Part shown: positions 2,059 through 63,529 of the stretch, in pieces | How the letters are laid out: every line of letters begins with the position of its first letter | How positions within the stretch are numbered: the stretch's first letter is position 1 | Assembly: GCA_002633005.1 (NCBI GenBank) | Contig: NMRA01000061.1 | Span: forward strand, 62,001 to 126,000 | Direction: 5' to 3' | Source: Phoronis australis | Taxonomy: Eukaryota > Animalia > Phoronida | Length of the DNA: 64,000 bases | Position numbers and translations under genes: made by a program | The notes under the pieces: generated by a model | What the model saw: only the letters and a program-made list of their open reading frames with translations | What the model was told of the DNA's origin: nothing | Databases searched by the model: none

Positions 2059-2384
2059 TCTTGACTTGTAATGTCGACAACAGAGGTGAAGGAGCAGGCT
2101 AATTTACCTATTTACAGAAACAAAAGAATTTGCACACCCATCTGTCAATTCGTAAAGCGGAAGTGACCTCTTTTGACTAATTGACGTACCACGTTTTTGT
2201 TTTATAAAAATTACAAATATTGCAAAAATACAGTTTTTATCACATTCCATGGAATACCGCATATTATGTCGCACTTTAATTTTTTTAGAACGCAAAGCTA
2301 CGTTAGATTACATCTATTAATGAATTATTTACAATCACTTTTGCCTGTTTAATAATAAACGTTTACGTCTCATCATTATTCAAG
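2059..2384. promoter_or_regulatory. Putative bidirectional promoter shared by C1orf198-like (-) and PUS10 (+)
   Basis: The two start codons diverge only ~326 bp apart (2058 on -, 2385 on +). The region keeps several CpGs. A YY1-like CAAGATGTCGG overlaps the PUS10 ATG. Confidence 0.6.
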
Positions 2385-5300: not shown

Positions 5301-8300
5301 CAGACTAAAAATCTAATGGGATTAGCATCTTTCTGAGTTCATGGCATATATTCCGAAAAGTCGATGGCAGAGAGAATAGTCATAAAATATGAAGTCTCAA
5401 GAAATACTAGTTTTTGTTTGAAGACTCACAACTTCACGTGCATCAGCTGAATATGGCCAGCACTGAGTACATCTTGTTTGGAGATCACAAACATTTTTAA
5501 GTCTGGTCTGCATGCCACCTGTTGGCCATATCACGTGACCTAATGGAGATGTTGAGGAGTTGTGTGGCAAGAAGTGCATCACCTTCATGAAAATGATTTT
5601 TAACAAATGTTTATGTTATCACTGCTAAGTCATCATTTTTATGACTGGTTTGTCTAATTCTCTCGGTATTGTCACGATTTCTTCCAGGATTGATTTTGCT
5701 CTTTTTGGCTTGTGTGTCAACACAGGTGTTTCACTGATGACGGATGCAGGTGTCATCTTGAATGAAGTATGCAGTGACCTCATTAGCTCTTGGTGGTCAT
5801 ATGACAATGCAGAATAGACTGTGCATGTGTTTCCTTTTGCAAAATTCTGACTTCAATTGCTTATTGTCCAAATGCAGCAGTTATGTTTAGTGCTTCTTAG
5901 CAGGGAACTAGTACCATTTTTCCAATGAATATTCAGTGAGAATATAGAAGGAAGTGACTGAACATTGACACAAGGGGATAACTTGGAAAAAACACATTTT
6001 GTAATAATTCCTGTTTCCCAATGGATTTTCACACGTAAACATATAATCTGTCCTGCAATTGACTGCCTGTCACTTTTAGTTGTTCATATGCTTGAATATT
6101 TTTTTATGACCTTTGATATTTCTGTCCTCTGCTTGGCTGAAACGCGGTACGCCTATTTCTGATGTATGATAATATTGACCAAATTAGTGTGGAATATCTC
6201 TTTTCACTCATGCTGTTGGACATAAGATGTAACTATTTGCAATCTGACCAATCAGACACTGCAGAAACCATAAACCCTGACCACGAAGTGAGGAGACGAA
6301 GTCAATACATCAAAACAGGTAACAGCAAGCTAATCTAACAAGAGACGGAACATTATTGAGAAGAATCGTCAGTGTAATTAAACAAAATAAATGTAGTCTG
6401 ATCACTTGAGCATATCTGATCATATGGACCTCGGGAGAGTAATATTGCCCTTGGCATCTGGCCTTGTGCATCATAGCTCTCCCTTGGTCCATATGGCCTG
6501 ATATCACCCTCATGATTGGTCTGTAAATGTATAGTGTTCAACCGTAGCATTGGGTTAAAGATAGTTATCTCCCTTGAAGTTCGTGTCTGTTCGTTTCAGC
6601 ATTCCTTGTGGGTCCTGCTGAGGTCATCGCTCAGGTAAGTAGCAGACTTATTCCCATCACAGTTTGGCTGGTTAGAGAATAGAAAGCACTCTTAGGTTAC
6701 TTTGTCCTTGTGAGAGTAATTGATATGTCCATGTTATTTTACCTCGTCAACACAAGACATGTTAAAATGATAAATCACACGTACCTCTGTGCTTATTGTG
6801 CGTTGCACATTGATTGATATACTCGCACATTAATTAAAAAAGGTAACAAGGATGCGCTCCCGAGGCTCGTTTGCATTCGAGCAAAGATCATGGAAGATGA
6901 GACAACAGACCATATTCATATAAATGCTGTATAAATGAGAAATAATTATAGTTGAACAAGGGAACTATCAGTGGGTCACGTGAGTCTGTGAAATGTGCTT
7001 GCCATCATAAAATTGTTCTAAATATCAAGTTATACACTGCACTATCTTTGAAAACTGTTTTTAGGGTGGAACTCATTTTTTATTTTATCAATAAATATGG
7101 TAAGTTAATGTTCTTTTTACAAGAGTATGCTAACTGGATTGATTCCAGTTTTAAGTTTGCTGCGATTTTGGTTTGACTAAACAGCCATTTTCAATGTAGC
7201 GATGTCATGGTGAGATACGGTTTGCCACAAAGTGGGGATAGGGTACTAGGTGTGCAACGCTCTGCATTCTAGTATGGATATAATGCAGTGGAATATTTTC
7301 CAGCGTTTTTTTATAAATTCTTTGCGACCACCATGCAGTCAAGTTGTCACTATTGTGCAGGGGAGGAATTAAAACAATTCCCAGGTGTCCCAACATTGCA
7401 ATTCGTCTTTATCAAGTCTGCCCATCTTGCTCACCAGAATTAGAAATTGGGTCAAGCTAAGTCTTCTTTGTCACGCTAAAGAGTTGTAAAGTAGAATGTG
7501 TTAGTGCTGTTTGAGACTACAAATATGTTATATTATGTTCGTTTACTTATGATTTGTCAACAAGGCATACTTCTTAAGTAAGAATTATTTGCCTTTTTAC
7601 ACGCTACATGTTGGTCAAATCATGTGACCTCTGAAAAGATTTTTGTACCAACTGGGACTTGAACCCGTTTTTTTCTGCCAACTGTTCAGATGCTTCTAGT
7701 CCACTGAGCTATCGGGACGACTGGTCAATTACAGAAATCTTTTCAGATTTAAATCTAGGTCATGTGATACGACCAACACATGGCAATGATAATTGTTAAT
7801 TATACCATTATCAACACGTTGATTAATGATGACATAATTAATCACATACTTGTGTTGCAGTGAGGTGTACAGTGACATCTCTCTTGATGATGTTGTGCCA
7901 ATTAAAGACGTTTGGAAGTGGATCAATGGCCCTACACTAGGTCTCCTGCTGAAGGTGCCGTTTAGCTTGCAAAGCGGCTTTGAGATCACCTTGTTTTTCA
8001 CTCATGACGAACTTGAAAACGAGTGTTCATTCCTGTAAGAATTTCACAGTTGAGGAGGAGGATAATTTTGTCATTTGTTAAAAGTATAAGTTGAACATTG
8101 CAAGTTTATGTACTGAAATTGAAATTGGATGGCAGTGCATGTTTGAATTAAACTGACTGTCGCAGTGACTTGAATTATCTTTTGTCGTGCCTATTGAACT
8201 TTTTAATTGTATACTAATTGTTCTTTAAATTAATTTCATTCAACGCATATTCAACGTAATTTTAAATTCTAAAAGAACAAGTCATCCGAAATCTTTCAAC

Positions 8301-11300
8301 ACTTGTGTCCTAAACTTGCTCTTAATGTTGTAATTGGGAATTTTTGACATTCATTAATTGTTTGTTTCAGGTATGATTTATATCCAAACATATTCAGAAA
8401 GCGCAAATACGGAAAATATACCCGAAAGGTACAATACGTTTAAAGCCTCATGCTATGCCATGGTTGTAGAAAACTATTGCTCTGCTTCATGTTTTGGAGT
8501 AGAATCGTTTTGATTTTTAATACGGCGAGTGAGTGTTTCTAATAACACTGTAATTAAACCATGGATTGAATAGAATTCACTGATTGCTTCCACGGGAAGA
8601 CTCATTGCTACAAACTTTGCTTATGCGATTATGAAGTGAGCGACTTTAAATTGACTAAGCACTGTGTGAGATTAAACAACATTGCCAATGATCTATTATA
8701 TTGTTGCAATTGATTAAGCATACGAAGGAAGCATATTCTTAGCTGGTTGGTGATGCTTACTTCTATGAGAAGGCTTTGACAGAACTACTGTGCTTAATGT
8801 TTCTGTTTTTTGTATTTGATGCATAGTGTTGACATTCTGTATGTGCGAAATCGATTTTTAAGTGCAAAGCATTCTCTGGTGGCTAAATAATGGATTTTTA
8901 GCACCGCTGACAAATTTTACGATTTATCCGTTAATTGGAAATTACATTTTCTGTTTTGTATTTTCAGTATAAGCTCGAGGTGTTCAACAGGACCAATGTC
9001 TCAAAAGCGCTTAATGACACATCAGACGAGAAATTCAAACAGTGAGCTCTTTCATTGCAGTTTCAGAATTTTGACTGAACTTTTGTGTAGAGTTGGTTGG
9101 GACATCAACCTGATCAGGTGTACCATAGGTCATTGATTGGAATGTCTAATGTGTTGAAAGTTAAGCATTTGTCAGCTGCATTCGTTTGGATAGAAATATG
9201 CAAAGCAAAATCAAACACAACTGTGGCCTGGTGGAATAAGTGTCCGTTGCCTTTACTCAAGGTTGTGAGTTCGATTCTCACCGGGGTACATTGCTAGACC
9301 CTTGAGTGAGGTCTTTGGCTCCTCAGCTCTGAGCAGCCTGGGCATGTCTGGTACTAGAGCACTAAACCTTATTTTTATATAAAACGTGACAAAATCATTC
9401 TCTTATCAATTAAATGCCTGTATTTTGTGAATTCAACTTATTTCCTTCTTCACGGTTAAATTAAGACCCAATCCTGTTGCCGCCTTTATGTGCTTGGTCA
9501 CATGTGAAAACTGCCCACAACTAGCTGTGTTGTTCTATTAGAAATGAGTATGGTTTATTTTGATTACTTTGCAATGATTTGCATGTCTCTGACAAAATCC
9601 TTTAAGTTAACTGGTTTTTACTCGAAATGGAACACAAAATTATGTTGAGCATTTTTTCTCTACTTTTGTGTGAACTCAAGATAAGTGTCTATTATTCTAT
9701 GCTCGAGTAATGACTTACGTGGATAATTTATTAGTCCAGGTTTGCAGCTGATAAACCCAACATTAAGGCTAAAAGTTTGAACTCGAAATTTTGAGATTTT
9801 ACTCAAGTTTGTAGCACAAATATAAAGGTTTTCAAGTGCAAACTTGGACTAGAAACTCATTATGCATAAACTATAATGTATTCGGACACAGTCTGATAAC
9901 CCATTATCTTGAGTTTGCGCAAAAGGTGCAGAGAAATTGCCAAAAGTAATTTCGAGTGCATTTTGATTACAAAGATCAGAGACCGGGCCTTGAAAATATA
10001 TAAAAAGTTAACCGATCTCAGCCAGTGGTGACATTCTGTGATTGATTCATACATTAGTGAATACCTTTAAAACGTGATACTTTAAGTTACACGCCTAAAA
10101 TGATTGGATAAAAATTCTGTTTCCGCATCATGGTAGCTAATTCAGAGTGCATCATCTTGTTAGCTTTCTGGTAAATTCTCCCAGTCAGCAGGAATGGCTA
10201 CTATGATTATTGTCATTGGCTTGCTGTCAGCCATCATACTAGATGACCGCATATCCTAATGAAGGCTGGGCGCCGAAAGGTTTTCTCTCCAAGTTATGCT
10301 AAACCCTGGCTAAATAATCAAATTTACGTTACTATGTACATTTTGAGTGTAGATGGACGCCTTTTGAGTCAATTGTATTTTTTAAATCCTTCCAACTTGA
10401 ACAAATACTCCCACAATCAACTTTGTTTCTAATAGACCATCGTCCCATCAATGCAATTGAACACTGAACGCCATTACTGTCAATGGACTTGAAAATGTAC
10501 AGAGGGTTATGGAGAGGCCGCCCGTCTGCCAGCCATGCTGAGAGGAGGCAGCACAGATGGGGGATCTATCTACCATCATGCTGAGAGGGGGCAGCACAGA
10601 TGGGGGATCTATCTACCATCATGCTGAGAGGGGGCAGCACAGATGGGGGATTTATCTACCATCATGTTAGGGTACTTCTCATGTGTACCATACTCTGTTC
10701 TGTCATTTCAGATTTTCCAAGTGCCCTCCCAAGAAATTATCTTCAGTTTGCAAGTGCTCTGAAATTAGGTATTGCCACAGTTCTGTCTTTCTTGCTGGTA
10801 AGTCTTTACCTCTGGTGTTGCCGTTCTCACACGTGAGTCATGTTCAACAAAGCTAGTTACTTCTGAGACGCTTGTGTTGAGATATCGCGTTCTTTGCGAG
10901 GGACACAGCATTGTGGAAATTTACAAGCTGTACACTTGTCCATTGAAGGAATTGATGTTTTTATCATAGGCAGTACTTTTTGCTTAAATATATCAAAGAA
11001 GGGGTAAATTGTTTTAACTATTAAAATCGGTTTGAGTGTAGAAGAAGCACAAGCTTCCTGTGAGCACCCTTAGGCATCTCCAGTACTGTCTGCTGAATGT
11101 CGTCTGCTTCTTTCCTTTTGCACTTTTATTCCCAAATGAAAGATGCTTTTGTAAAAGGTATTTTATTTGAACCCTTAAAGCGGCTTCAAACACAAGCTCC
11201 TTCGAAGAAGTGAACTTTCATTTTGGATCACTTACCAGTATGAAATTGGTCTCAATTTGTTCCTCACTCAGATGAGAAGTTGTCTGGGTTTGCAAAGGAC

Positions 11301-14300
11301 TGACACTTTGTTATTCCTTGAGACTACGCTTTCTGCATAAGTTGGCATGCCATGACTACCCAACCTGTAGATCCCGGTCTCAAGCAGTATCAAAATGTCA
11401 AGTTTTGCGAAGCCCTGAAGTCGCCTCTTGTTTGACTCAATAGCAATTTAGTGCTTGATCTACATGTATACTAATTTCATTATGATATATATGAAGTTGG
11501 TTTTTGTGATGGAGGGCGGTTTAATTGTTGTTCTTTTGATGAACAAATAAATGTGAAATTTATATCTCTCTCACTTTTGACACCTGGATGAACAAATGTG
11601 AAATTTATATCTGTCTTTAACACTTGCAGGGCGGTACAACAAGTACTCCCGCACTCTGAGTCAGACCCCCTGGGTGGTTGATGGACACCGGAAGACTGAG
11701 TCATCAGTCCAGGAACTCATCTGTGAGAAACTTATAGAAAGAATTCGACCTGATGGTGAGTCATTGGTGATTTCCGCGACCTACTTTATGTTTTGGCTGA
11801 TTATGAGGAGGGATACTTGACTTGTCTTCTTTGTAAACCACATCTGTTACGCATTATAAGAAACTTTGCTTAAATAGACAAACTTAAGTCCAATAAATGC
11901 ATAGGCGTAGCTTTAATAAGTTACGCATTACAAGGTCATGCTGTTGTGTGACACTGTAATAGGTTTACGCACTTCAGATAGGTTGTATTTTGCCTTACTT
12001 AGGTTAAACCCATTGATGTGGTTGGATCTGACTTAAGTGAATTTCACTGTATTTTCTAAAATTGACTTCAGTTGTCATTCACTCTACTACGCATCCCATG
12101 AATATGGAAGTCAGTCAGCAGACAATCAGATTAGGGTGTTACCTATTGACAAGCGTGCCACGCAGCGGCGAGATTTGGCACATTACATCATTTTTATTTA
12201 GAAGTCTTACTCGGTGGCGTGATCGGCTGCACAAGTCCCCTTTTCTGGCAGTTATGAAGCATTAAAAATTGTGTTTCAGAGAAAACGAGGAGGCAAACTT
12301 ACGTGGACAAAATGAAACGTGCTGTGTGTTTCTGAATAAAAGGAATGTTTGAATCTACATTCACATTACCAGGGACTTGAAATGGGTCTGAACCCTTTAC
12401 AGTAAACTCTCTCACTAATTTCATACAAAAGTGATCACCAAAATTGTACTTTTTCAGTTTTCAATTTCATAACATTGCTGTAAATGCTCACAATCTTTCA
12501 AAACATTGTCTGTTGGTAGCCGTTGTGCTGAACTTTGATATGGAAAGGGATTTAGATTGTTATTGTACATCCTTCATGAAAAAAATGAGAAAATCAAAAC
12601 ATTGTCTGTTGGTAGCCGTTGTGCTGAACTTTGATATGGAAAGGAATTTAGATTGTTATTGTACATCCTTCATGAAAAAAATGAGAAAATCAAAATGAAG
12701 TTTCACATGTCTCTCATATTGTGTGTTAAAATGGTGAGATTTTTTGTAATGGGGGATTAGCGAAACAGTTGCAGTTGTTTGAATGTGTTTGGTGGAATTA
12801 CGACTGCTGGAAATCTTGTTTTGCAGAACACAGATTTTCATCTTCTGGCCGGGAAGACGTAGATGTTCGTATGTTAGGAAGAGGTAAATGATATAGTACA
12901 TGGAAATCAATTGTTCCTTTTGGGCACAGCCTCTGTCAGTCTATTATTACTGTTTGGTGTAGTTTGTTAACTAATTTAAATGATTATTTATGCTTCAAGT
13001 GAGTATGTTTTTGCCTTAGATAAAATCTCCCGAATTACAACTCTGATTACATTTAGATGTCTTTTTCGTTGTAGTTGATTTTAAACTATAGGTCATCTCT
13101 GTTGTTCGTTTAAGTGCTAAAGTCATTAAGATCTCAACTATTTTTTTTTCTTCGTCGTAAATAAATGTTTTTATGACAGGGCGGCCTTTCATTGTTGAGT
13201 TTGTCAATCCACGAGTTACGAATATCTCACAAGAAGAGCTAACAGGTTTACAAAAGGTATGGTTTTGTTAAAACAATTACTACTCTAAGGAACTGAAATG
13301 GTCCTGACAATGTGATGAACATCAATGATCAGAAATTGAATTTTGTGATTGGTGATCTTAAGCTAGACCTTTTTCTGTAATTCTGCTTAAAAATCCGTAG
13401 ATGTTGCATAAAATGCTAATTTTCCAGAGATGTTTAAATTGATGTATGGCAAAATCTCATCAGTTTAGGAAACAATTTGGTGGACAAAGAGAGTGAAATT
13501 TATTTTCCCCCATCTCTGCAAATTTTAGCTCTCAGAATTTTATTTTAGTGTAATGGACAATCGCAGATTTAGTGACACCCTGCATTATTTGGGCGGGAAA
13601 ACAGCCATACTCTCCTGCTATATTTTGTATGACTCTTATAAACAAATCCAAAGTAACAATAACTTCCTTATGGAATCAACCTCATGGACGAAAGCCCACC
13701 CTCAACTTCTTGAGAGTTTCGTTTATAAATACCAACGTTTAATTGAATGCCCGCCCTCCAATTTTTTAGTCATTGGATGTAAGTACCCAGGGTGGTAACC
13801 TGGATGAGTATGGTAGTTACAATACATTTTTTAAATTTCCTTTTTAGGCTGTAAATAGTTGTACACGTGATGTCCGCGTAAGAGATCTACAGAGGATCAA
13901 AAAGTAGGTGTGTTTATACACTAATTATCTATTAATACTCACATCAGAGAATGCCATAGTCTTTGGCATTAGTCTGATTTTTTCATCATTACCCACAATG
14001 CTGTGCAAAAGTAGTTCACTTGTTTCACTGTTGTCATCCTTACAATTATTTAGGTGCAAAATTGTTATTATTATTATGCCAGTGAAGTTCTACTCTTCCA
14101 AACTGAATTGAAATGCAAACATAAATAGTTGACCAGCTTACCAAGGTATGATACACAGTTCTTGAGTTGTCTGACTCAGATGTGTGTTAGCTGCTCGACC
14201 ATTTGAAAACTGACAGAGTTAGTCATGCAGTGCATTTTTCGACTTGTGCAAAAGATGGCAGTTGAAGTCTGGATGTGGCTTTTGGGCTTCTTCAAAGGAA

Positions 14301-17300
14301 GAAGTCCTTTAGTTAATGTTTGCACACTGTATGTCATCACTTGCTGATATGCTGTGGATGTTTTTTAGTGCGTTATAATTAATTAACATCTGGTGTCCCA
14401 TTATATCAAAGTAACACCGAATTATAACAAAAGACCACCGTATCAGATTTTTACTGTAACATAATTTCTTAAAAGAATTTGTGAAGACGGTCGCTTAGTG
14501 CGCATGGGACTGTTACTTGAATTTAAATACTTGTACTTTGTTGCAATGCTGGTCGTTCTCATGAAAACACTGTGTTGTATTTGCAATCTCTTGCGTGCGA
14601 CTGCCATAGGTACGAGGCCATTATTTGGTGAAATGGGCCAGTGAGACTGTAGCTCAGGGATGAAAATTGAATCTTGTCTCATTCATGTACATAGGACTAC
14701 TGGCACGATTTAGATTATTATTTGTTGTTTGCAGAGAAGAAACGTGTGTCTTGAAGGAAGGGGAGGAGGACAAGACAAAATCATATTTGGCGCAGTGTTG
14801 GTGTCAGCCTGCAATCACACAATCTGAGCTAGACAAGCTTTCAACCATGAAAGTAAGTCTATGTTACTTAGCTATTATAATTGTCGCGCTATTGGTGTGA
14901 GCCTGCGATCACACAGTTTGAGATAGACTGGATGTCAGCAATGAAAGTAGGTCCATGCTAGCACTGTTGGTGTGAGCCTACAATCTCACAGTCTGAGCTG
15001 GACCAGTTGTCAACCATGAAAGTAAGTCTATGTTAGCCAGTACAATTGTCGCACTGTTGGTGTGAGCCTGCGATCTCATAGCCTGAACTAGACTGGCTGT
15101 CATCGAGAAATGTGCGTCTATGATAGCAATCACATTCAGTAGTTAAAAGTTTTTAATTTTAATTACGAGACTTGTGCTGGCTTTACACCAACTCAAAATT
15201 AAACTTAAAGCTTTAGAATTGTCTTCTGTTTTTCTCAACTGTGCTTCAAAGCTGTCACAAGTTTCAGCTCTTTAAGTAGGGATTATTTTAATATTCATTT
15301 CCTAAAGTATATGTTTTAATACGGGCTCTCCTTGAATTTCTGGTGATTATCAGATATTCAAATATTTAACTTTCGAAAGAGCAGTATCTAATACTCAATA
15401 GAGCTGAATATATCGGAAGCTTCTTTTCACTCGTTCACAGGACATTGCGCTGAAGCAGAAGACTCCTGTGCGTGTACTACATCGGCGAGCTCTGTTGTTC
15501 CGCGACCGAATGGTGCACAGCCTGAGCGCACAGCTGGTGGACGATCACCACTTCAACCTGACACTGGTCACTCAGGCTGGGACGTATCCTTTGAGGTTGT
15601 TTACAAGCACTGACCATTTTTAAAAGATTTTTAGCAGGAGCCTCGTGCTGTGCAATTGTTTTTCCAGTTAGGACAAATTCCTCAGCGCAGATAATTTGTA
15701 GGAAAATCCAGCACTGTCATTTTCATGATTTTTAGAAACTGTTCATCTGTCATAAAACAACTTTTTTATAAAATGCTAATGTTTTTTTTAGCAATCTGGA
15801 AAGTTGGCAGCGTTTAATAAATAAAAAAATTCAATTCCTTTTCTATGAAATATTGAATAACTGCTGTATTTTTGTTTAATGTTTGGGGGTTCTTTGTAAT
15901 TGAAATACCTTGTGAACTTTTTCCAAATTTGCTACAGGGAATTCCCGGCTGTTATCTTTTCAATTTAGTAATACTCGCAGGCTTTTTTGACACGAGCGTT
16001 GTTCAGCCGTCGGTGTTAGAATTTAACTTTTTAACCAGAGGCATTTTTTTAGCTTCTAAGTTGAAAATCTTGGAGCAAAATCAAAGTCATAGACACAAAA
16101 CTATTTAGATCCTAAAGTCTGTATATGGTATTGCTGAGCATGTACCTTAACTGTAGTTAACCATTAAAACACGAGGCAATTTTTCAATGCTCATTATTTT
16201 GATTACACGTCATTGAGCACACGTCAGTCAGGATCAGCAAAGAACTGCTCGGTAGTCAATGCACAAGATTTGTACAATATTACACAAGACAGTGATGAAT
16301 TTCCTACTTAATATTAGAAGAAATGAATTTTAAACGACAATTACGTGTAATTAATTATGCACACAGTAAACGACTGAGTACCAGAATGTTGCAGGGTCGA
16401 GATTTTCAAAGCAAAAATGAAACAAGCCTCCACCCATTTTTCAGGTTTAGGTTACTTCACCAAAATCTATGTAAGAAGCAATGATTTGCTACTGGGATAA
16501 ATTTCTAGGCACAAATCCCTATTTTTAAGTGCATTTTGCTCCCATTAATTTCAAACACTGGCGTTTTCTTCTTTAAACACCACTTCATAAAGAAAAGCAT
16601 CGCTGGTCCGACTTAAATTAGAGACCAGCATCTCCTGGAAACACGACTTCTATTCGAAACTTTACGGTACACCTATCCCCCACCAGTTAGTGAACTTTTA
16701 TTGTCACCAGCTCTTGACCCAGCTGGTGTGTGTTTGTCCTTGTTATCACGTGAATTTTCACCTCTTTGCAGTTGGTCTTTCTCAACACTGTTATCAGTTC
16801 ATCATGTGTGACTATTACTAGGCTGTCATGTGTTCCTATATCCATCTGATAAATTGTGCATCGTTGTACCATGGTGCGTAGTTTTACCATGATGGTGAAT
16901 ACTTTTACCATTATATTGCATTATCCTTTTACCATTTTGTACATACCAGTAGCATAGCTAATGCGACAATAGTCACTTATAGGATTACCAAAGTTTGGTA
17001 ACCATTTTATTGCCTGTTATTTAGTTGTGAGAACTGGTTCTCAAGACACGACTTTTACAGCTAATGCAAATTTTCCCATGCTTATGGACCATATAAAGAT
17101 CTTTTTGTAAAGAAAATAGGTTGCAGAAGTTCTAAATTTAATTGAAATTAAGTTTATTTCTCTCAAACATGTATTATAGATAATGGGCGCTACTCAGGGA
17201 ACTTTCGAACGTTAACAAAAGAATGGAAATTTTTGCAACAACAATGATAGCACCTTGCTAATAAAAAGTGGAAAAATAAATTAAAATGCGTACTTACCAA

Positions 17301-17873
17301 ACTATCCATCTGTGAAGAGGTAGGGTATGGTGAGGGGAAAATATTTTAAAGACAGCCCTACGATAATTTAGAAACAAATTTGATTTCAGTACTGTGAATA
17401 TTTATTACCAACTCAAGTTTCAGGGTTCTGGTATATTTTGTATCTTATCTATAATTTAATCAATCCTCAAACTTGTGAAGGGCCCTTCATTCACATTATA
17501 AGAAATGTTTCCACAAAACCTGAAATTTTATTTAATTTTTGTATGTCCCTCCAGTTGTGACTTGGATTTTATGGGTGAGCAAATTGTAGAAAACATTCTT
17601 TCTGAAGTAAAAGTTCAAGTCATTCCGGTGTTGTTAATTTTTTAAATTTTAGCCAATCAGCTTGTGTTTTTCTCACTTCCTATCGCACAACAAACAGGAA
17701 TATTCTGTCTACTTGTCTACACATACACGCGGTCACGTGTTTTTGATTGCTGTCTTCCTTAACGCCACATCAGATATGTTAAAGAGTTTGTTCATGGCGA
17801 CTTTGGTCGTACTCAGCCCAACCTGAATACGATTCTTGGCAGGGAGTGCGATATTCTTGAATTGGATGTCAAG
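2385..17873 (+). CDS. PUS10: tRNA pseudouridine synthase Pus10 (3'-partial; terminal exon not found)
   Basis: Phase-consistent exons: 2385-2414, 3518-3655, 4097-4246, 5185-5271, 6600-6634, 7861-8034, 8371-8428, 8968-9041, 10712-10797, 11630-11755, 12827-12883, 13180-13256, 13848-13903, 14735-14852, 15441-15583, 17774-17873. Motifs: CPRC and CAVC (Zn site), GRYNKYSRTLSQTPW, catalytic SSGREDVDVRMLG, QKTPVRVLHRR, TQAGTYVKEFVHGDFGRT, DILELDV. Confidence 0.96.
2651..3182. mobile_element. MITE/non-autonomous TIR element in PUS10 intron 1
   Basis: ~75-bp imperfect TIRs: 2651-2723 (tagtagtagagatggtg...cttcatacgctggaagcttttcggctaattatgcttcacat) is the reverse complement of 3104-3182. No coding capacity. 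A related internal fragment occurs near 10387-10420. Confidence 0.75.
3705..3867 (+). repeat. Dispersed T-rich repeat; second copy at ~20584-20736
   Basis: Visible alignment over ~160 bp (ttggaatttttctatt...tttcgatttc...ttgatatccagtttc...ttatcattattt...aattttacac...atatttct). Confidence 0.65.
4677..4959. repeat. Minisatellite, ~59-bp unit, ~5 copies
   Basis: Unit ctataatgctgtatataggtcactctcacactcttctggccttgttgggtggcctctta repeated in tandem in PUS10 intron 3. Confidence 0.9.
6391..6527. mobile_element. Small fold-back (hairpin) MITE-like element
   Basis: Imperfect inverted arms: catatggacctcgggagag ... ctctcccttggtccatatg, extending outward to tgatca/gatatc-like pairs. Confidence 0.55.
7651..7718 (-). 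mobile_element. tRNA-derived SINE head or tRNA pseudogene
   Basis: The reverse strand reads gtcccgaTAGCTCAGTGGactag...GGTTCAAGTCCcagt, giving Pol III A and B boxes. The anticodon arm is degenerate, so it is not a functional tRNA. Confidence 0.6.
9221..9374 (+). mobile_element. tRNA-derived SINE (family copy 1)
   Basis: A box TGGCCTGGTGG and B box GAGTTCGATTC, followed by body tgctagacccttgagtgaggtctttggctcctcagctc and an AT-rich tail. Aligns with the inverted copy at 28873-28985. Confidence 0.75.
9616..9989. mobile_element. MITE, left-truncated copy of the element at 49473-49853
   Basis: Colinear match (gaactcaagataagtgtctattattctatgctcgagta...tatgcataaactataatgtattcg...gagaccgggcc) to the NPHP1 intron copy. 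Confidence 0.85.
10534..10667. repeat. Tandem repeat, 43-bp unit, 3 copies
   Basis: catgctgagagggggcagcacagatgggggatctatctaccat x3, just upstream of PUS10 exon 9. Confidence 0.9.
12498..12695. repeat. Near-identical ~99-bp tandem duplication
   Basis: tcaaaacattgtctgttggtagccgttgtgctgaactttgatatggaaagg[g/a]atttag...aaaaatgagaaaa occurs twice with one visible mismatch. Confidence 0.9.
14790..15130 (+). repeat. Four tandem copies of the 3' half of PUS10 exon 14 plus its donor site
   Basis: Unit tgttggtgt[c/g]agcct[g/a]c[a/g]atc[a/t]caca..ctgagct[a/g]gac...caaccatgaaa|gtaagtctatgtta starting at ~14790, 14887, 14961 and 15051. Confidence 0.85.
15584..17773 (+). other. U12-type (minor spliceosome) GT-AG intron of PUS10
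   Basis: 5' site GTATCCTTT at 15584. Branch site TTCCTTAAC at 17755-17763, ending 7 nt before the CAG, with no polypyrimidine tract. Removing the intron restores QAGT/YVKEFVHG. Confidence 0.93.
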
Positions 17874-18999
17874 GTAATACAAGTGGACAAAATGCCACAT
17901 GGTAGAAATCTCTTCCTTGATTTTATTTACACAACATAGTTGTCATACTTATGTTAAGGTTTATAGAGGCAATACACTGTGCTTGCTCAGTTGCTCTGTG
18001 TATGATTACGACTGTGACTTTTGTCCCTTAAGATTTTTAATTTACCTTATTTAATTGGTTTTGGTCAGGTATCTTTGGCCAGAACTTCTCTTTGGTCCTT
18101 TTTCAAATTTTTAAAGAGGAGTTCCATGCACTTTGTACCGTGAGGATGCCCTCATATTATGTTGTATTGAAGATTAAAAAATGTCAAATACAGGAATCAG
18201 ATGCTGCATTGACCCTGTAAGTGAGGTCATTGATAATGCCTGGTACATCAATACTTTGCTCTGTTGATTAAACACAGCACCAGGTTGTACATAAATATCA
18301 TATCAGTGGTATCTGTAGAACTGATACTTGACTATGTTGATGAGACACAACACAGATATGCATGAGTTATGCCTCGGAAATATTGGTAGATTTGATTATT
18401 TAATTTGTTAAGGTGATTGTAAATCACCTCGGTCACAATACTTTTGATTTAAACTGGTAACGTTATAGACACTTAGTCTCACTGTTGTTGAAGACTAGTA
18501 CTATTTCCCTCTAAGCTGTGATAAATATTCTGAATTGAGAGATAGTTATATTGAAGTGTAATACTGGAATTTTCCATCCTTTTTCAAGTTCAATAGATTA
18601 ATATCAAAAAGTGGTGATGTTTTTCCACTGGGTGATAGCTTGCTGCACTTTTAAGTATGTTGCACGTTGGTCTTTTGTTCAGTGGGCCTATTGCCTTTAT
18701 TACAGAAATAAATTGATTGATTGGTTGATTATGGAATTAGTCTCAAATTGTTGCTTCGTCCAAATACATTTGATTCCTGGGCTTGAAAAGAACCCACATT
18801 TTGTTATTATTTAAAACAAGACTTTACAAGTTGACTTGTCATTTCATTCGAGGAGCACGTCTCTAGAAATTATGAGAACTATCAATTAATTGCAATACCA
18901 AAATCAGTTCTGTTCTCATTCAGGAACTAGTTGAGATCAATTTAGAAGCAGTAGGTGATCTTAATCAAAAGCGGGTCTGTTTTTTGAGGGAACTCTGGT

Positions 19000-21106: not shown

Positions 21107-22344
21107 CGAGTCTCGTTTATCAGTCGGAAACCATAATATAAACCCTAACCACTGAGAATGTTTTAATGTTATCGTAGATACATTTTCTGACGAAAAGCCA
21201 CGACGTATGAAAATTTGAGGCTACTCTTCAAAAAATAATGAAATTCGCAAATGTTGAACATAACCCAATCGAGTGTCCCCACCAGTTCGCCAACACCACC
21301 CCAAAATGTTAACCACCTCCGTTGCCACAATCTGGCCAGTACTTTATGTTGCGACGCACGTGACACGTAGATCCTGGAGAACTACTTAAATTTATGATGA
21401 TGGCTGGAACACCGTTCAGACCACACGAGGCGTCCTCAGCTCGACGGCACTCTATTACCGTCTTCATCTGCCACGGATCCCAAACTGATAACAGTCCCAA
21501 ATGACCGATGTCTCAACCTGAATAGAGAATGAAAACACCTGTCACTCTAATCACTGTTTATTTTTCTTACTTCAGAGGTGTCCTCAAGAATTCAACGGGG
21601 ATCTGGGGGATCTGCTCTCGTTGTTCCCCCGTAATTCTACACAAATATGAAAAGTGGTCGTGTCAAGGCTTTGAAGAAAATGTCTAAGAATAATTTCAAG
21701 ATCAATTTCGAGTTTGGAAATCGGACCCGGCCCGTGGTCTTCACCAGATTCATTTTGAAGCCTGTTCCCCAAAGGCACGTACTCGCCCGAACTTTTTCAA
21801 TAAGCGGAAACAAACGCCCACATCGCCTTTAGCGATTGGCGAAGTTCGCTTTTGTCAAAGGCTACACAAGCGTATTTCTTAACAAATTGACTTGGGAACT
21901 TAGCTAGAATCACCTGGTTCAATACCTTAATTGATCGAGAACCAGTTTCCAATGGAAAGTGGTATAGTTTTGGTGCTGTTGACTAGAGTACAGACAATCG
22001 GCGTCATTGCATGAACCGCCGAAGCTCCTGAAGAAAAAAAAATACCGCGCCACGTCAGGGCACATCAGGTGTCATTTTAAAAAAACTACCAATTCTCAAA
22101 AATTGACCAACCCAATTCTGTTACTGTTTTACGTCTCATTCGGCCGGCCACAACGTCCCAAAGTGTCACAATTTCAACACTGTGACAATTTGGGCCTGCA
22201 CAAAGCATCCCCCCTCCCCCAAAGATAAGGCGAGACGAAATCATTGCTGGCGCACTCCTCTCGCTTAGATTAAAATGAAAACGAAGTACACAATCATCAA
22301 AACCTAGACTATTCGTGCCTCCGGCAAGTCTTTAGAGTCACAAC

Positions 22345-25300
22345 ATGCATTTGGTGACGGGAGCTCAGGTGTTTATAGCCGCCTCAATGCTGGTGGTCTC
22401 CCACGCCCAGAATATTAACATTTTATGCATGATGACCAAGTGTCTTCAACAAAGCGTGCGCTGTGGTGCCTCCGCTACCTGCCGAAGCGCCGTGTCGTGT
22501 ATTGGAAAATGCGGAACAGACATGACCTGCACGTACAAATGTATTGCAACGTACGGTGACAAGACGTTCGATCTTTTCATTGACTGCGCAATGACCAGTA
22601 AGTAAATACTATACCCAGTGTGCCTCACCGTAGCTGCGGCGTTTTGGAATTCAGTTTTCATATTGCCCCAGAAGATTTATCAATTTTTGTGCCAACTACC
22701 ACTATTCCTTTGTGCATTTTACCGTTTTACCATCATCCGGGTGAAAAATATTTCCAATCTGGTAAAAACATTCGACCTAGATGAAATAGTTGAAAATACG
22801 TATCAACGTTTTGCGGTTAATTTTGGCAGTCTGGGTCATGGTAAAAGGCTTTGCGCGGGTTTTTAATATTCTCTCTTTTCACCAGCTCGTAAATGAATAA
22901 ATGCGATCAATTGAAATGAGCGGTTCGTAAATTACAGCCATGTGCGTATTCGCTATCTTTATTGTCAATTTTCTCAGTTCACAAAAAGTACAAATTATGA
23001 AGCTATTCTATAGTGACCACCATCACGTTATATTCGTTATATTACTACTTTAACAGAAATCCAAAAAAGCGATTTCAAAAATTCCTCACCAGTCACGAAG
23101 ATACATTTGAAGTAAAAGAGAATGTTAAATGTCTTCTTGATCGAATTCTCATTATTTTTAAAGGCGTCGCGCACCACTTGAAGATAATTATTGACAAATT
23201 TGGAAAGCGTTACAACTTGCTGTTTGACATTTTTACCTAAAATGAAGCGCCGGAAAGAGTATTTGTAAAAGCCTCAATCCGACACGCGCGAAGACGCATT
23301 TAAAGCTCATGACTATGGTTGGCCAATAGCGTCAATGTCTTTTTGCCGGCATTCGCGAAGAACGTGATGAAAGTTTTGATGAACACTAAATATAACCATT
23401 TCCTCAGAAGCCAATTCAGGATTTTAACCACAGGCCTTCGATTTCTATTTGAAAGCGAGTTTCACTTTCTGTGCTATTGGCCTGTTTTCGAACATTTACA
23501 ATGGAACAATCTTCTAGGTTTTCTTTTTAAAAATCGGGTAAAGAGAATATTTTGATAGACAAAAAACTTCAAAAACAACGTTTACATGACCGGGCCTTAC
23601 CACCAGGTCACATTCAGTATCACTGTGTCGTTACAAGAAAACAAGTGCATCGTTCCACCTGCCAACCCCCATCCCATACAATGTAAGAAGCCTCCTGTGG
23701 ACAGCTTGGTAAAAAACTTCAACATCACGCAGCTGTTGGGAAAATGGTACGTCATCTATGGCATGAACCCGGTTTTTGACTGCTTCAATCGCTCTTGGAG
23801 TTCCTTCGAAAAAGATGGCGACCAGAGTCTCGTGCTAACTGAACATTACCAGGTCATAACGCTCGACGGGAAACCAAAGAACATGAGTCAGAGAGAGGTA
23901 AATGTGAAGACAAAGGTATATGGGGTCAGTAATAAATCAGGATTGTTTTAAATCACCTACAAACCGCATTCCGTTAAAATACTTATTTAGACTACTTATA
24001 AAACTGTTCCCACTAATAAGTCGTTAACTGTTTAAGTTTGGACTGAGTCGAGTTTCGGGCTTTTGTAGAACTCAGTGGCTGTCATGTCATGAACAGAGTC
24101 CCTTTAAACAACAGTATTAGACCAGGACCGATTTTATCAACATTTCTTTCAGGCACAGCTTCTACTTTGAGTTAGTGATGTAGTTAGTTAGTTAGATTAT
24201 AAGCCATGCTGATAATTACTCACCAATAGCTCAAGGCTGGGGGTTCTCTTGACAAAATAGCTATTACTAGACCAGGAACGCACACAGTCTTATTTTTACT
24301 CCTCCATTCAGATTTAATAATTTCCATCCTTCATCATGTCCCAAAAAGAAAAAAAAAGAAAATAGAGCCTGGATGCTTTCAAGCATTCTATTTAGATATG
24401 AGCTCGTAAGAAACAGTTCCCTCACTTTGTGAATAGAGTCACACTATTGATAACTAGTATATTCCCTATTGTGAATGGAATGTCACGTGGATAGAACCGG
24501 TCCAGCTCACAACATGGCTTATGAATTCCTCAAAATCGATCCTCATCTCGTTTAAAGGGAGTGTCTGCAGCATGGCTCCTTCTGCTACAGTAAGAACCAG
24601 GCTCATCTATGCTGGAATATGACGTATCCGATTAGTGCACCGATCATGGCTTTTAGCCATAACACTTACCACTAGTTCTTTCCAAGTTCACCCAAATCAC
24701 TTTTCATTTGAGTAATGACAATAGTTGTCTTCATCAGAAATTTCAATTTCTTAGACTGAACGTATGCAGAAGCTTTAATATAAAAAAGAAAATCGTGAAT
24801 ATTGACGATTTCATTCATGGACAGTGTAGGCGTATGCAATTTACTATTTAGTAAAACGTTTCGCCATTTGTTCCTGATCACCAGTGAGCATGAAGGATGC
24901 ATCCAATTGAAATTAACATTGTTTTCAAACAGGATGTGTCTATACTCAGTACCATGAAAACTTTTAAAGGTAATTGTTTAAATTACCTCTAATGACCGCT
25001 CATTTTTAAATTCGGAAACCCATAGTCGCTTTTATATTGATGAAGTGGCTTAAAATCGACACCATTAACTTGTTTTGTCGATTACACCTATCGAAGTTTA
25101 TTTTATACAGAATTTCGGGTACGTCGACGTGAAAGTGTCCCCGTCCGTTTTTTACTTAAAATCCAAAGACCCGGGCATAGCGAGGGACGACGAATTTAGA
25201 ATTATCGCCGCCGATCCATCAGGTGCATACGTGGCGGCTTACTACTGCGGAGAAAGCAACGGAATGAGGTATGTTTTGTCGTTGACCTAACGAGTAGACA

Positions 25301-26480
25301 ACAAATTACTTGCCCGTGTTTTCCGTCCCCCATCTTTATATTTGAGAGAAACGTTGATGAAATAGCAGATTTTGTGTGAGGACAGACTGCCAAGATAGTG
25401 GCCAGAGGGTCGACGAAAGAGTCCGGGGTTTCAGTTACTTATCTGCTATAGACACATTCAGGCTATTTCAAAGCTGCTGTTTAAAGAAACAAAACTTCGA
25501 TTTACTTTCGTGCAGCTATAAAACTGCTGTCTTACTAACATGGGAGGTGGTTTCTGGGCTTATTAGTTGAAAACGACTGACTGAGACGAGCTAAAAGTTG
25601 GGCATCTGATCTCAAACCTATAAATGGTTTAAGGACTAACCTCATGACGATAAACGGTATCAATAAAAATTTGTATTTTGTCGAAATGCGGCTCTCTTGA
25701 AGCTTTTAATTAGTCAAGAAAAAGACCAGTAAAACCACCGTCGATACTTTTGTAGCCATAAGGCTTTAGATCACAACCACCATCATCGTGTGTAAGTTAC
25801 CACTACAGAAGTTGCTACTAAAAATTCCGCAAAATGCTTAATTCGATCCTCGCTGGTCCCCTACGTGCCTAGTAGCCAGCACGCTGGCGCGGCTACCGCC
25901 CCACCCAGCAGCACGCAGGCAACCAGCGAGAATTTGATCAGGACTCCTCGCGTGGACAAGTTTCACCGTTTTGATCAGCATAAACTAATTTAATTCCTAT
26001 CAGTTGAGTTTACGTTCACGAACCGATCTTCGGCCAGGCTAGGTGACAATGCCAGAGAGGAAAAAAAAAGAAAAAAACAACATATTTCACACCATCACAG
26101 CATTCAAACAAAAAACATTTTTCACAAAAATAAGATTCAAGACCCACGATTTGGACTACCGCGACGTATTCGGAGTCTTTTTGCATATTTGAGGAATGGT
26201 AACCGCTCACGGAAGGCGTTATAGCCGTATTGTAGCCGGGGCAATGCGGATATTTTAAAATACTTTTGACTGGCAAGTTCTTTGCCCGTTACTGACGGTT
26301 TGCCCGACAATTATCTATTTCAGATACGAAGGCGGTGTAGTGTATAGTCGCACATCAACACTAACCACAAGTCAAAAAGCATCTCTCGCTCAAGACTTGG
26401 GAAAACACGGACGGGATCTCAAAAAGCTATGTCAACCAATTCCAGCTCAACAGAATCTTCCAAAGACCATCTTCAACTAG
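22345..26480 (+). CDS. Violaxanthin de-epoxidase-like (VDE/VDL family) lipocalin with signal peptide, 275 aa
   Basis: Exons 22345-22597, 23638-23897, 25111-25268 and 26324-26480 (828 nt, intron phases 1/0/2, GT-AG, TAG stop). Contains a 10-Cys N-terminal domain, LVKNFNITQLLGKWYVIYGMNPVFDCF, RDDEFRI, YYCG, YEGGVVYSRTSTL and GRDL, colinear with recalled plant VDE motifs ([51 protein letters not shown], GRDF). Confidence 0.9.
25849..25930. repeat. GC-rich hairpin in intron 3 of the VDE-like gene (probable small MITE)
   Basis: ctcgctggtcccctacgtgc ... gcacgcaggcaaccagcgag pair with few mismatches. The inner gtagcc/ggctac also pair. Confidence 0.55.
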
Positions 26481-27650
26481 CGCTCTGAATTCGTCAGACG
26501 TATTTATTCCATCTAACGGTTAATGCAACCATTTGTTAGTTATTGTTTCAATTATTTCTCGCATAAGGTACTATCGAAGATAGGGATTTAAACTATTTCA
26601 TCAGACAAAAACGAACATTGTATTTTAGAAAAATATAAGGGTGTCATCTTGAATGTTTGTATCAAAACAAATTTGGCTTCACAGTCCTTGCTGATATAAC
26701 CCTGAGGCTGATTTCGATTTAGTCCGAGTCAGCATGGGCGTACACTTCCAACGACAGGAGTATAGGCGTTCATTTTCAAATCTGCCAACTGAAGATTCTG
26801 TATCCAAAAGCATACCAGCTGCATTTCAATTCAGCAAACTTAAAAAAAAAATCCAAATATCGATATTTTCAAGCCCAAGACAACTAAAAGAATAGAAGGC
26901 AAAGCCCAGAATCTCAGTGGATAGTTTTGTACCTACAAGCATCAATAATTTCGTGTAATGACTAGCCTACCAAGGGACTAATGGGTGGGGGAAGAGGTGT
27001 GTTGGAGCAAAACAAACAGGTTCGGGGGGCTTTACTCTTTATTTACATAATATGTTGCGGTAGTAGGCGTGATAGTAGTAGTAGTTGTAGTATTCGTAGT
27101 AGTAGTAGGTAAACTGAAAGAACCAAAAAAAACATGTTCAAGCTTACATGTTGCATAGGGCTCTACCATGTATATACAGTAACATTTAGGAGGACAACGC
27201 CCAAGTAAAATGATAACTGACAAAGGGTATACATTAATGACAAGCGTTCAAAACATTAAGTACACCTGAGAGAACATGAAAAACTAACATACTAATGAAT
27301 GCAAATAAACTGTATTGTAAGAAACATGAGTACTCACGCCAATATCGCCCCAAGTCCAACCAAAATTCCGAAGAAACTAACTATGTACATTGACGTTCAT
27401 CCACCATAAAACGTTTGTGGAATGGCGTTCAAATAGAGCGGTACCAGAATAAATAGTCAGAGAGAGAGCGACATCTGGCGCAAGAACTACACTGTAGAAA
27501 GTCCTCTACATGGCGGGAAAAAAGTGTATTCGTACGCCCAATCGGAATAACATAACGTAACGTAACATTGCAGTCTGCAGTAACAAGGTGTAACCCAGCA
27601 TTGACAACATACTATTGCCAAACGGCGGGGTACAGTCTGATATACGATGC

Positions 27651-62900: not shown

Positions 62901-63529
62901 TGCACGCTATGTTTACTGTTTCTCAAAATTGAAAAAGAGCAGCGCCATCTTCAGAAGTAATGAACAACTACTTGAATGTTCATTGTAAAATGATCATCGC
63001 TTGATTTGTGGCGAGAATTGTTGAATTTGATGAGGTATTTCTTAGTTTTTGATAAGTAATATTAGAAAAATTTAAAAATATTAATAGAAATATTATTACA
63101 GATTATTAAAATTTTTATTTAAACTATTAGAATTGTGGTATGTGTGCCTGAAATATAATTAGTTCTTTCGAAATCTCTTAATTCCATGACAGAATTCAGT
63201 TTCTATGAATTTTGTCCATTTCTATTTTCGCGGAAAACCAGGATCTTCTCATATAATAGAAAAATAGTGTCACGGTTGCTTTACCTCACACACACCACCT
63301 GTTGGTCACACCTTATGACCTAATTATTTTGCGTTTACCCGCACCAGTTTAAATTTACCTTCTTCACATATTAGACTATTAATGCCATGCAATAAAATAA
63401 TATTTGAAATATTAATTGTTTGCAGGGATGACGGCTGGTGGGAGGCTGAGAATGAAGAGGGGGAACGTGGTCTGGTACCTAGCACATATTTAAAAGAATA
63501 CAGTAAATACAGGGACATACAGACAGAGG
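47929..63529 (+). CDS. NPHP1: Nephrocystin-1 (N-terminal coiled-coil, acidic linker, SH3); continues beyond the window
   Basis: Core exons 47929-47994 (MPTKDRGPLFEAQREGDLFKKQ), 49370-49458, 50631-50691, 50973-51047 (VDEPGKVSDFEGKKEAELKRL), 51417-51594 (acidic), 59075-59211 (acidic), then SH3 exons 62341-62435 (YEAISDYQAREKGDLSFDEGEIL) and 63426-63529 (DDGWWEAENEEGERGLVPSTYL). Domain order and N-terminal motifs match recalled human NPHP1. Confidence 0.88.
49473..49853. mobile_element. PIF/Harbinger-like MITE, 14 nt downstream of the NPHP1 exon-2 donor
   Basis: ~85-bp TIRs ggcccggtctccaatc...gcgaactcaagataa / ttatcttaagttcgc...gattagagactgggcc. A second copy lies at 9616-9989. The superfamily is inferred from the GGCCC ends. 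Confidence 0.85.
51859..53797. mobile_element. ~1.9-kb non-autonomous TIR element in NPHP1 intron 5
   Basis: atagaccctattcacgccgac...tccaaaacgaggctcgctacgata pairs with tatcgcagtaagcctcgctttgga...gcgtgaatagagtctat. The interior is CpG-rich with G-run MITE fragments around 52830-52990. Confidence 0.75.
54203..58562 (+). CDS. Block of six in-frame phase-1/phase-1 coding exons inside the NPHP1 acidic linker (Ser/Pro/Lys-rich, likely disordered)
   Basis: Exons 54203-54292 (90), 54589-54960 (372), 55522-55716 (195), 56498-56599 (102), 56956-57159 (204) and 57372-58562 (1191). All are AG/GT-bounded, multiples of 3 and stop-free in the frame shared with the flanking NPHP1 exons. Confidence 0.72.
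59230..59640 (-). mobile_element. Degenerate 3' end of a CR1/L2-type LINE
   Basis: The reverse strand has a decayed gcatttggagccgtggccatggaatcat segment (resembling the L2 'AF..AAP..WN.LP' tail), followed by the stem-loop cagggaccacttggaaatcagtgtattcaatgaagtggtcaccc and an A-rich tail. Confidence 0.45.
61172..61189 (+). CDS. Candidate 18-nt NPHP1 microexon (ELEFEP)
   Basis: ttgtag|GAACTTGAGTTTGAGCCA|gtaagt. Frame-preserving and open in phase 0, with a TGC motif ~16 nt upstream. Confidence 0.5.

Follow-up and report, generated by a model that had tools for sequence, protein, structure and literature searches.

A short, probably secreted relative of violaxanthin de-epoxidase encoded in the genome of Phoronis australis

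The genome of the phoronid Phoronis australis carries a complete, intron-bearing and transcribed gene whose product is confirmed, on its sequence, as a member of the violaxanthin de-epoxidase (VDE) family (PF07137). The gene lies in the 64,000-nucleotide stretch of contig NMRA01000061.1 analyzed here, hereafter the window. Its protein shows a predicted signal peptide, a ten-Cys domain and a lipocalin barrel and lacks the Glu-rich tail. We propose, with a probability of about 0.4, that it is a secreted lipocalin that would bind dietary epoxy-xanthophylls and open them without ascorbate.

The gene consists of four coding exons in the plus strand that join into an ORF of 828 nt (275 amino acids plus the stop) and are separated by GT-AG introns, in agreement with the original prediction. 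Many RNA ends at 22311-22314 in runs X2 and X3 mark the likely transcription start and delimit a 5' UTR at 22311..22344. Exon 1 (22345..22597) encodes a signal peptide, predicted at about residues 1-21, and all but one of the Cys-rich domain's ten cysteines, and is followed by a phase 1 intron of 1040 nt (22598..23637; 90 junction reads in X2 and 101 in X3). The tenth cysteine, a proline linker, Cys100, lipocalin motif I, Asp132 (D114 of Arabidopsis) and Cys133 are found in exon 2 (23638..23897), which precedes the phase 0 intron 2 of 1213 nt (23898..25110; 51 and 72 reads, respectively). Exon 3 (25111..25268) corresponds to barrel strands with Asp198 (codon 25189-25191), Phe200, Tyr216 (codon 25243-25245) and Cys217; the third intron (25269..26323) has 1055 nt, is in phase 2 and was crossed by 73 reads in X2 and 66 in X3. 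Exon 4 (26324..26480) carries the last strand with Tyr231 (Y214), the lipocalin helix, Cys260, a Glu-free tail of 15 residues and the stop codon, and the 3' UTR (26481..26641) reaches the edge of the read pile-up at 26641. The gene was thus transcribed from the sense strand in two of the three raw RNA-seq runs, X2 and X3, each of which showed all three predicted junctions, and a single 903-nt contig of run X1 spans the four exons. Run X4 gave zero junction reads for this gene, although expression of its neighbours was seen in X4 as well as in the other two raw runs. Of the nine coding variants listed, eight are synonymous (P=3.3e-5 from site counts); the gene is under coding constraint. No second copy was found within the 64-kb window, nor transposon-like terminal repeats around the gene in 19-30 kb.

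Algal or symbiont contamination of the assembly, as was suspected for a VDE-like EST of the oyster Crassostrea virginica in section 6 of a 2008 phylogeny (PMC2483416), has a practically negligible probability here. The three introns are of kilobase size, their GC content (0.36-0.42) is like that of the host, two alleles are present in runs X2 and X3, and the homologues in other animals are located on contigs of 3-71 Mb. Furthermore, the gene is contiguous with PUS10 and DUF4706, which are spliced in the same runs and, together with an SH3 gene, constitute its intron-rich neighbourhood; the DUF4706/C1orf198 neighbour we take to be an animal-type gene. These neighbours point to an animal host, and the gene is intact, expressed and embedded among host genes.

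The predicted cysteine spacing of the first domain (4, 6, 5, 5, 3, 5, 3, 14, 6) was recovered, and it differs from that of the plant VDE P0026 in one shorter loop: P0026 has 8 where the window protein has its second-last 5. All ten cysteines align with C9-C72 of plant VDE. At the exon level, Pfam assigned exon 1 (E 9.4e-8, 32.3 bits) and exon 2 (E 1.2e-10, 41.7 bits) to PF07137 above the curated cut-off of 25.7 bits, whereas exon 4 (E 8.9e-4) fell below it; the exons were called VDE and not Lipocalin. Exon 3 had no Pfam match, yet it matched a family HMM built excluding the window protein (E 4e-6). The VDE-type barrel anticipated after the Cys-rich domain agrees also with the match of exon 2 to PDB entry 3CQN (E 1.4e-10). 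Concerning the fold, the Cys-rich domain was predicted as five helices (pLDDT 79), and a Foldseek search with this model returned no PDB match. For the barrel, the abalone protein P0011 was modelled as a stand-in (pLDDT 85) and the top four Foldseek matches were 3CQN/3CQR, with ApoD/crustacyanin and biliverdin-binding lipocalins ranking just after VDE. As the original prediction held, this is not an ordinary ApoD/crustacyanin-type lipocalin: those proteins share the barrel fold but are single barrels without the ten-Cys domain, and the short-type profile matched ApoD with E 1.6e-5 versus 1.6e-28 for VDE.

The window protein shows 25% identity with plant VDE (NPQ1; 3CQN, 3CQR). The alignment indicates that D114, D177, Y198, Y214 and F123 (Arabidopsis numbering) are kept, with the catalytic D177 and Y198 corresponding to Asp198 and Tyr216. 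In contrast, the Q119, H121, R138, D117, D98, H168 and D206 positions are changed (Q119 and H121 to Ser, R138 to Gln and D117 to Asn), the carotenoid contact W179 is replaced by Phe200, and the C118 position is changed as well, so that the plant C118/C249 pair is absent. Among the ascorbate contacts, D114 is retained and Q119 is lost (residue roles for ascorbate, pH switch and substrate contacts as given in section 9 of PMC13181403). The tail comprises 15 residues with no Glu, compared to 96 residues with 26% Glu in P0026. On the other hand, two cysteine pairs are extra relative to plant VDE: Cys100/Cys217, which aligns with the ApoD cysteines, and Cys133/Cys260. The leaders differ too, since plant VDE has a long plastid/lumen presequence and the window protein a short one with a hydrophobic stretch at residues 3-21, as judged by hydropathy only. 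The window protein also has three N-glycosylation sequons, and it is likely secreted.

The phylogenetic analysis placed the window protein outside the core VDE group (99/97), the VDL group (100/100; a label assigned from published features, without named reference sequences) and a three-row group (100/100) that we take, by its motif, to be VDR. Its sole firm grouping was with P0001 (99/98). It scored 224 bits with the HMM of the short type (8 rows), 143 with that of VDE (8 rows), 110 with VDL (8 rows) and 63 with the VDR-like one (3 rows). Forcing its union with core VDE was rejected by the AU test (p-AU 1.9e-5), while a sister position to VDL (p-AU 0.097) was not rejected. Animal monophyly was neither supported nor rejected (p-AU 0.125), and the short type was not established as one clade (p-AU 0.30). 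The use of butterfly lipocalin domains as outgroup did not fix the base of the family tree. A long VDL-like branch among molluscs in a 17-row tree joined the VDL group once further algal rows were added, and its first position is therefore treated as an artefact. Of the original suggestion of a gene "horizontally acquired (or patchily retained)", patchy retention fits the distribution of the family, whereas a recent transfer from a plant or algal VDE is rejected by the tree. This result also bears on the reading of the protein as a true ascorbate-dependent, pH-activated de-epoxidase, converting violaxanthin to zeaxanthin or diadinoxanthin to diatoxanthin and recently obtained from an alga or plant. 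The Asp at position 177, where VDL and VDR have Glu, the retention of D114, Y198 and Y214, and a GC3 (0.56) above those of PUS10 (0.475) and DUF4706 (0.44) would agree with it, but the loss of Q119, H121, R138, the C118/C249 pair and the Glu-rich tail, the rejected grouping with core VDE and the divergent homologues described below make it very unlikely.

Proteins of the same short type were found in abalones, clams and a hemichordate (acorn worm), all in chromosome-scale records, and further in ciliate-code nanochromosomes, a chytrid and a vampyrellid amoeba. The short-type protists named here are taken to be algae feeders. The automatically named animal relatives include those of Haliotis rufescens (XP_046346709.2), H. 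cracherodii (XP_071080872.1), Tegillarca (KAJ8311672.1), Mactra (ACF0H5_013429) and Glandiceps (XP_077994384.1), and one animal relative carries the automatic name "violaxanthin de-epoxidase, chloroplastic-like". Where complete they have 270-279 amino acids and, as in the window protein, show a leader, ten cysteines, a barrel and no tail, together with both Cys100/217 and Cys133/260. However, they are just 27-32% identical to the window protein, and in most of them position 177 is Glu, position 179 is Trp and the barrel bears a third pair of cysteines, none of which holds for it. With these homologues, and with a mollusc VDE family already in print, the notion of a novelty specific to this lineage does not stand. 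We found no paper describing the short group; in print there are only the oyster EST, a passing mention of a VDE family in the Manila clam (PMC5499747) and the automatic names, and the literature found contains no functional description of the named animal proteins.

That several animal and protist groups share this short type indicates that the gene is not a one-off transfer, and homologues at 25-36% identity in these groups argue for its age. We consider it slightly more likely than not that the short type is, as the simplest account, an old eukaryotic branch, retained in algae-eating lineages and lost in others; one or more old transfers are somewhat less likely, and a recent one is highly improbable. 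A 2026 review assigns the VDE family to organisms with photosynthesis among the eukaryotes and regards its origin as an open question, and the 2008 phylogeny set aside its single animal sequence as a likely contaminant. An intron-bearing, expressed and constrained animal gene with relatives in molluscs, a hemichordate and heterotrophic protists shows that a non-plastid branch is real, and this branch changes the sampling needed for rooting VDE evolution.

Concerning function, the proposed secreted lipocalin would enter the secretory route by its 21-residue hydrophobic N-terminus and reach the gut lumen or a digestive vacuole, where oxidising conditions could allow the formation of seven disulfides. 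There a dietary algal epoxy-xanthophyll would be bound in the barrel, and Asp198, which aligns with the proton donor of plant VDE (Asp177), would transfer a proton to the 5,6-epoxide held near Tyr216. The outcome would be a VDL-like rearrangement or a hydrolysis and not the light-regulated reductive de-epoxidation; a non-reductive outcome is proposed because the protein lacks Gln119 (ascorbate) as well as His121, Arg138, Asp117 and the acidic tail, which serve the pH switch and dimerisation. That the fold can do such chemistry follows from VDL1, the violaxanthin-neoxanthin tautomerase, which isomerises violaxanthin without ascorbate according to PMC7056318; the same source gives diadinoxanthin, 9'-cis-neoxanthin and dinoxanthin as substrates not accepted by VDL1, so that the chemistry of the family appears narrow. 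VDL2 in turn carries out the diadinoxanthin-allenoxanthin step. The chromalveolate VDL1/VDL2 share with the window protein the two domains and the lack of H121, R138 and the acidic tail, and the Cys133/Cys260 pair is also found in VDL2-like rows. Nevertheless, they have Glu at 177 and an enlarged core of 261-325 amino acids, compared to Asp and 246 amino acids in the window protein, whose host, unlike theirs, is non-photosynthetic. In bivalves and tunicates the epoxide of dietary fucoxanthin or peridinin is hydrolysed or cleaved and the allene converted, and the portions available of the two sources (PMC3093257, PMC6949322) name no enzyme for these conversions in shellfish. The window protein represents a small, easily expressed candidate for them.

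Against this best reading, the residue at the position of the catalytic acid varies across the short type, which would fit a carrier at least as well: Asp or Glu occupies the D177 position in 8 of 15 short-type rows and Ser, Gln, Thr or Ile in the other 7. A non-catalytic secreted carrier for the uptake, transport or storage of dietary xanthophylls, like crustacyanin or ApoD, with the Cys-rich domain docking to membranes or micelles, would also be in keeping with the ApoD-type cysteine pair, the place of ApoD/crustacyanin next among the PDB matches, the loss of the pH-switch and ascorbate residues, and the plain lipocalin role that was proposed by the authors for a VDE-like gene in heterotrophic MAST-4. 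We nonetheless hold it somewhat doubtful, since Asp198 and Tyr216 are both present in the window protein, Tyr occupies the Y198 position in all 36 family rows having a residue there, and the ten-Cys domain, essential for VDE activity according to PMC13181403, is complete.

The change of Trp179 to Phe and the 25% identity to plant VDE speak likewise against opening of epoxy-xanthophylls, and could fit another hydrophobic dietary or host ligand, such as a tetrapyrrole or chlorophyll breakdown product, an oxylipin or a sterol epoxide. The biliverdin-binding lipocalins just under VDE in the fold search with the P0011 model, and the lack of a known substrate for VDR, point in the same direction. 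Such a ligand seems unlikely, however, because the members with a known reaction (VDE, VDL1 and VDL2) all act on xanthophylls in the review sections consulted, and the short type occurs in algae-feeding animals whose carotenoid metabolites need such chemistry. A broader scenario, in which the short secreted type, as a digestive carotenoid-epoxide enzyme with an ApoD-type disulfide, would be the ancestral form and source of plastid VDE, VDL and VDR, and its animal members the missing fucoxanthin/peridinin epoxide and allene enzymes of marine invertebrates, is speculative and quite unlikely.

Among candidate members, P0007 was discarded for its EF-hand repeats, and P0002 and P0003 were ruled out as butterfly multi-lipocalins. 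Word-based homologue searches gave no match with exon 2 and three with alignment A1, and with P0001 they returned P0001 alone; they were insensitive, and these blanks do not speak for absence. Among prokaryotes, one check yielded 0 of 5 and each of three phylum samples yielded 0 of 401, with no signal from any positive control. In GTDB genomes the 11 pattern matches included no confirmed prokaryotic relative and none of 17 motif matches was one; viral contigs gave four pattern matches and no confirmed relative. In metagenomes a first scan yielded 0 family members out of 11, and a wider motif led to a family ORF at 114 of 118 loci.

The violaxanthin de-epoxidase (VDE)-family gene (PF07137) at 22345-26480 on the plus strand comprises four coding exons (22345-22597, 23638-23897, 25111-25268 and 26324-26480) that join as a spliced ORF of 275 codons plus stop; its introns of 1040, 1213 and 1055 nt are all GT-AG. 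The first ten cysteines of its product are spaced 4,6,5,5,3,5,3,14,6, and together with the exon joins this spacing bears out the intact ORF of the original prediction. By the numbering in sections of PMC13181403, these cysteines match C9-C72 of plant VDE one to one in the alignment. The proposed profile comparison also agreed: PF07137 was matched in exons 1, 2 and 4, above the cut-off for two of the four exons. Exon 2 matched the Arabidopsis VDE barrel 3CQN (E 1.4e-10), and a family HMM made without the window sequence matched all four exons and, below E 0.8, nothing in the rest of the 64-kb window. The gene is a genuine feature and a VDE-family member, yet neither VDE, VDE-like (VDL) nor VDE-related (VDR).

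Four public RNA runs of one species were mapped to the locus, using 18-19% of the raw reads of each of runs X2 and X3. Junction reads for introns 1, 2 and 3 numbered 90, 51 and 73 in X2 and 101, 72 and 66 in X3, and one 903-nt contig of the assembled run X1 covers the four exons, so all three predicted junctions are confirmed. Transcripts in X2 and X3 start near 22311-22314 and end near 26641. First mates map to the minus strand here and likewise at the plus-strand neighbour PUS10; therefore the RNA is sense-strand. The third raw run, X4, belongs to the study that produced X2 and X3; it gave zero exon reads on the gene but did show PUS10 and DUF4706 junctions, and expression is thus restricted by tissue or condition. 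Multi-exon PUS10 (about 3560-17900, plus strand; Pfam Pus10_N_euk and Pus10_C) is spliced in all three raw runs, and the divergent DUF4706 gene (1-2103, minus strand) shows one joint, 894-1142, in three runs. We take the latter to be an animal-type gene, C1orf198-like by name. Frame and domain reading also gave, at 57269-63594 on the plus strand, a 441-aa low-complexity frame together with two exons, one acidic and one with an SH3 domain, which we presume may be nephrocystin-1-like. Eight of the nine coding variants of the VDE-family gene are synonymous, against a synonymous-site share of 21% (P=3.3e-5), a count covering the 40 listed variant rows examined, with 62 further rows outside it. Intron GC (0.36-0.42) is close to that of the window (0.39), and GC3 is 0.56 versus 0.475 and 0.44 in two neighbours, a mild rise that is not proof of transfer. 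This is a live host gene, and the build of the genes here, together with the identity of the neighbours, suggests that the host is an animal. Dispersed repeat pieces at 25850-25930 (intron 3) and 26870-27600 (downstream) draw reads of other loci on both strands.

With exon 2 as query, a full phmmer search yielded 27 matches at E<=0.001, 20 of which were examined individually. Ordinary lipocalins, considered beforehand as a contrary outcome, were not the best matches; these were short VDE-family proteins of the same build as the window protein (short type: leader, ten-Cys domain and barrel, without the Glu-rich tail). They came from the abalones Haliotis rufescens (RefSeq name 'violaxanthin de-epoxidase, chloroplastic-like') and Haliotis cracherodii, the blood clam Tegillarca and the acorn worm Glandiceps, all on contigs in the 3-71 Mb range, and from the amoeba Leptophrys vorax, the chytrid Quaeritorhiza haematococci and unnamed transcripts; a separate homologue search added a relative from Mactra (42 Mb contig). 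With such proteins in molluscs, an acorn worm, protists and a chytrid, the supposed uniqueness to the lineage is not supported. The closest relative is the unnamed P0001, and identity to every short-type row is 25-36%, so the group is old. In the ESM Atlas, the abalone protein and P0001 both lay nearest a 174-member PF07137 cluster (commonest phylum Mollusca, 61 with known phylum) and a 95-member cluster (commonest phylum Porifera, 9 with known phylum), phyla that serve as leads and not as the range of the family. Of the 118 loci picked up by a metagenome motif scan, 114 carried a family ORF. Five picked by motif (L023, L066, L054, L101 and L115) are open only with the ciliate code (TAA/TAG = Gln), their nearest short-type protein being P0020; C4A4-type telomere repeats occur at both ends of L023 and L066 and at one end of L054, and these three are likely spirotrich ciliate nanochromosomes. 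Prokaryote searches, run without a positive control, found no VDE-family relative, and a bacterial source is still conceivable. The chytrid protein (KAJ3084678.1) lies on a contig of only 11.6 kb, where contamination is possible; its deposited name, 'Vitamin D3 receptor', is probably a mistaken VDR abbreviation. The window protein belongs to a short type, probably secreted, that is common to several animal and protist lineages.

In print, portions of PMC2483416 place one oyster EST within the VDL cluster, with contamination suspected, and include an Acanthamoeba sequence in a figure; passages of PMC5499747 name VDE among Manila clam gene families, and passages of PMC3998028 report from heterotrophic MAST-4 a VDE-like gene that may encode a plain lipocalin. 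The abstract and sections 8-10 of PMC13181403, and a term search of it, yielded no reference to family members from metazoans, heterotrophs, ciliates or fungi. The short type has been noted in databases and in passing in print, but no account of a VDE subfamily in animals or of a secreted one, or of what such proteins do, was found in the literature outside subscription papers and supplements.

Residues 3-21 of the window protein are hydrophobic by hydropathy, three N-glycosylation sequons are present, and a secretory leader is likely. The exon 1 model has five helices (pLDDT 79) and no Foldseek match in the PDB. The abalone model, a stand-in for the window protein, shows a helical domain and a barrel (pLDDT 85), for which Foldseek ranked 3CQN/3CQR first, then sandercyanin, bilin-binding protein, ApoD and crustacyanin. 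Across a 36-row family alignment the barrel cysteines vary together in pairs: positions 100 and 217 are jointly present or jointly absent in 36/36 rows (present in 16), 133 and 260 in 35/36, and plant C118 and C249 in 34/36, counts that overstate independence because the rows are related. The 100/217 pair aligns with the ApoD cysteines and is missing from the core VDE, VDL and VDR-like rows. Using roles given in section 9 of PMC13181403, the alignment shows that catalytic D177 and Y198 are retained (Arabidopsis VDE numbering), as are D114, Y214 and F123; W179 is replaced by Phe, and D98, H168 and D206 are absent, as are Q119, H121, R138, D117 and the Glu-rich tail of true VDE. The cysteine pairs and lost pH-switch residues would suggest a disulfide-locked barrel without a pH switch, and the retained catalytic residues could still protonate an epoxide. 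According to parts of PMC7056318, VDL1 rearranges violaxanthin without ascorbate, so a VDE-type fold is capable of such chemistry, and portions of PMC3093257 and PMC6949322 report that shellfish and tunicates break the epoxide of the fucoxanthin and peridinin in their diet and also modify the allene. We tentatively regard the window protein as a candidate epoxide-opening enzyme (probability about 0.4) and a candidate for animal carotenoid remodelling. Counted against epoxide opening are the narrow substrate range of VDL1, also in parts of PMC7056318, and the acid at the D177 position in only 8/15 short-type rows. The latter would suit a carrier no less, a reading slightly less probable than epoxide opening; against it, the window protein keeps the D177 and Y198 equivalents. 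Binding of another ligand seems less probable still.

The family tree comprised 34 rows: the window protein, 16 proteins taken from databases and the 17 metagenome ORFs that a 68% redundancy filter kept out of 38 full-length ones. It excluded fragments, near-duplicates and the database protein P0007, and the Tegillarca row was trimmed where its gene model diverges. Wide VDE (100/98), VDL (100/100) and VDR-like (100/100) groups were resolved, labelled from named plant VDE, from published features and, by our own assumption, from motif, respectively. The window protein paired with P0001 (99/98) outside all three. Its forced union with core VDE was rejected (p-AU 1.9e-5); this and the missing residues make a true VDE very improbable. 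Because of the same rejection, a recent plant/algal VDE donor is excluded on these trees, and of the original 'horizontally acquired or patchily retained' an older transfer is unproven. Forced union with VDL was not rejected (p-AU 0.097). Neither the 12 short-type rows (p-AU 0.30) nor the named animals in a 17-row tree (p-AU 0.125) were recovered as one side, and neither arrangement was rejected; rooting on butterfly lipocalins left the base of the family tree open. These trees do not distinguish long-standing vertical retention from old transfers. The gene is less unique than first held, and the horizontal-transfer account is unproven. There are indirect signs that intron positions differ in a mollusc-like lineage, as might be expected from old paralogues or from independent gains. 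Three single-frame calls on 2-6 Mb contigs (P0004, P0005 and P0032) are open across the window intron-2 position and break elsewhere. The short type bears on the origin of VDE. A subgroup of two metagenome loci, L044 and L073, is sister to core VDE (91/84) and may connect the secreted type with plastid VDE. Both loci have a short leader, His121 and Asp177 as in true VDE, plus the Cys100/Cys217 pair.
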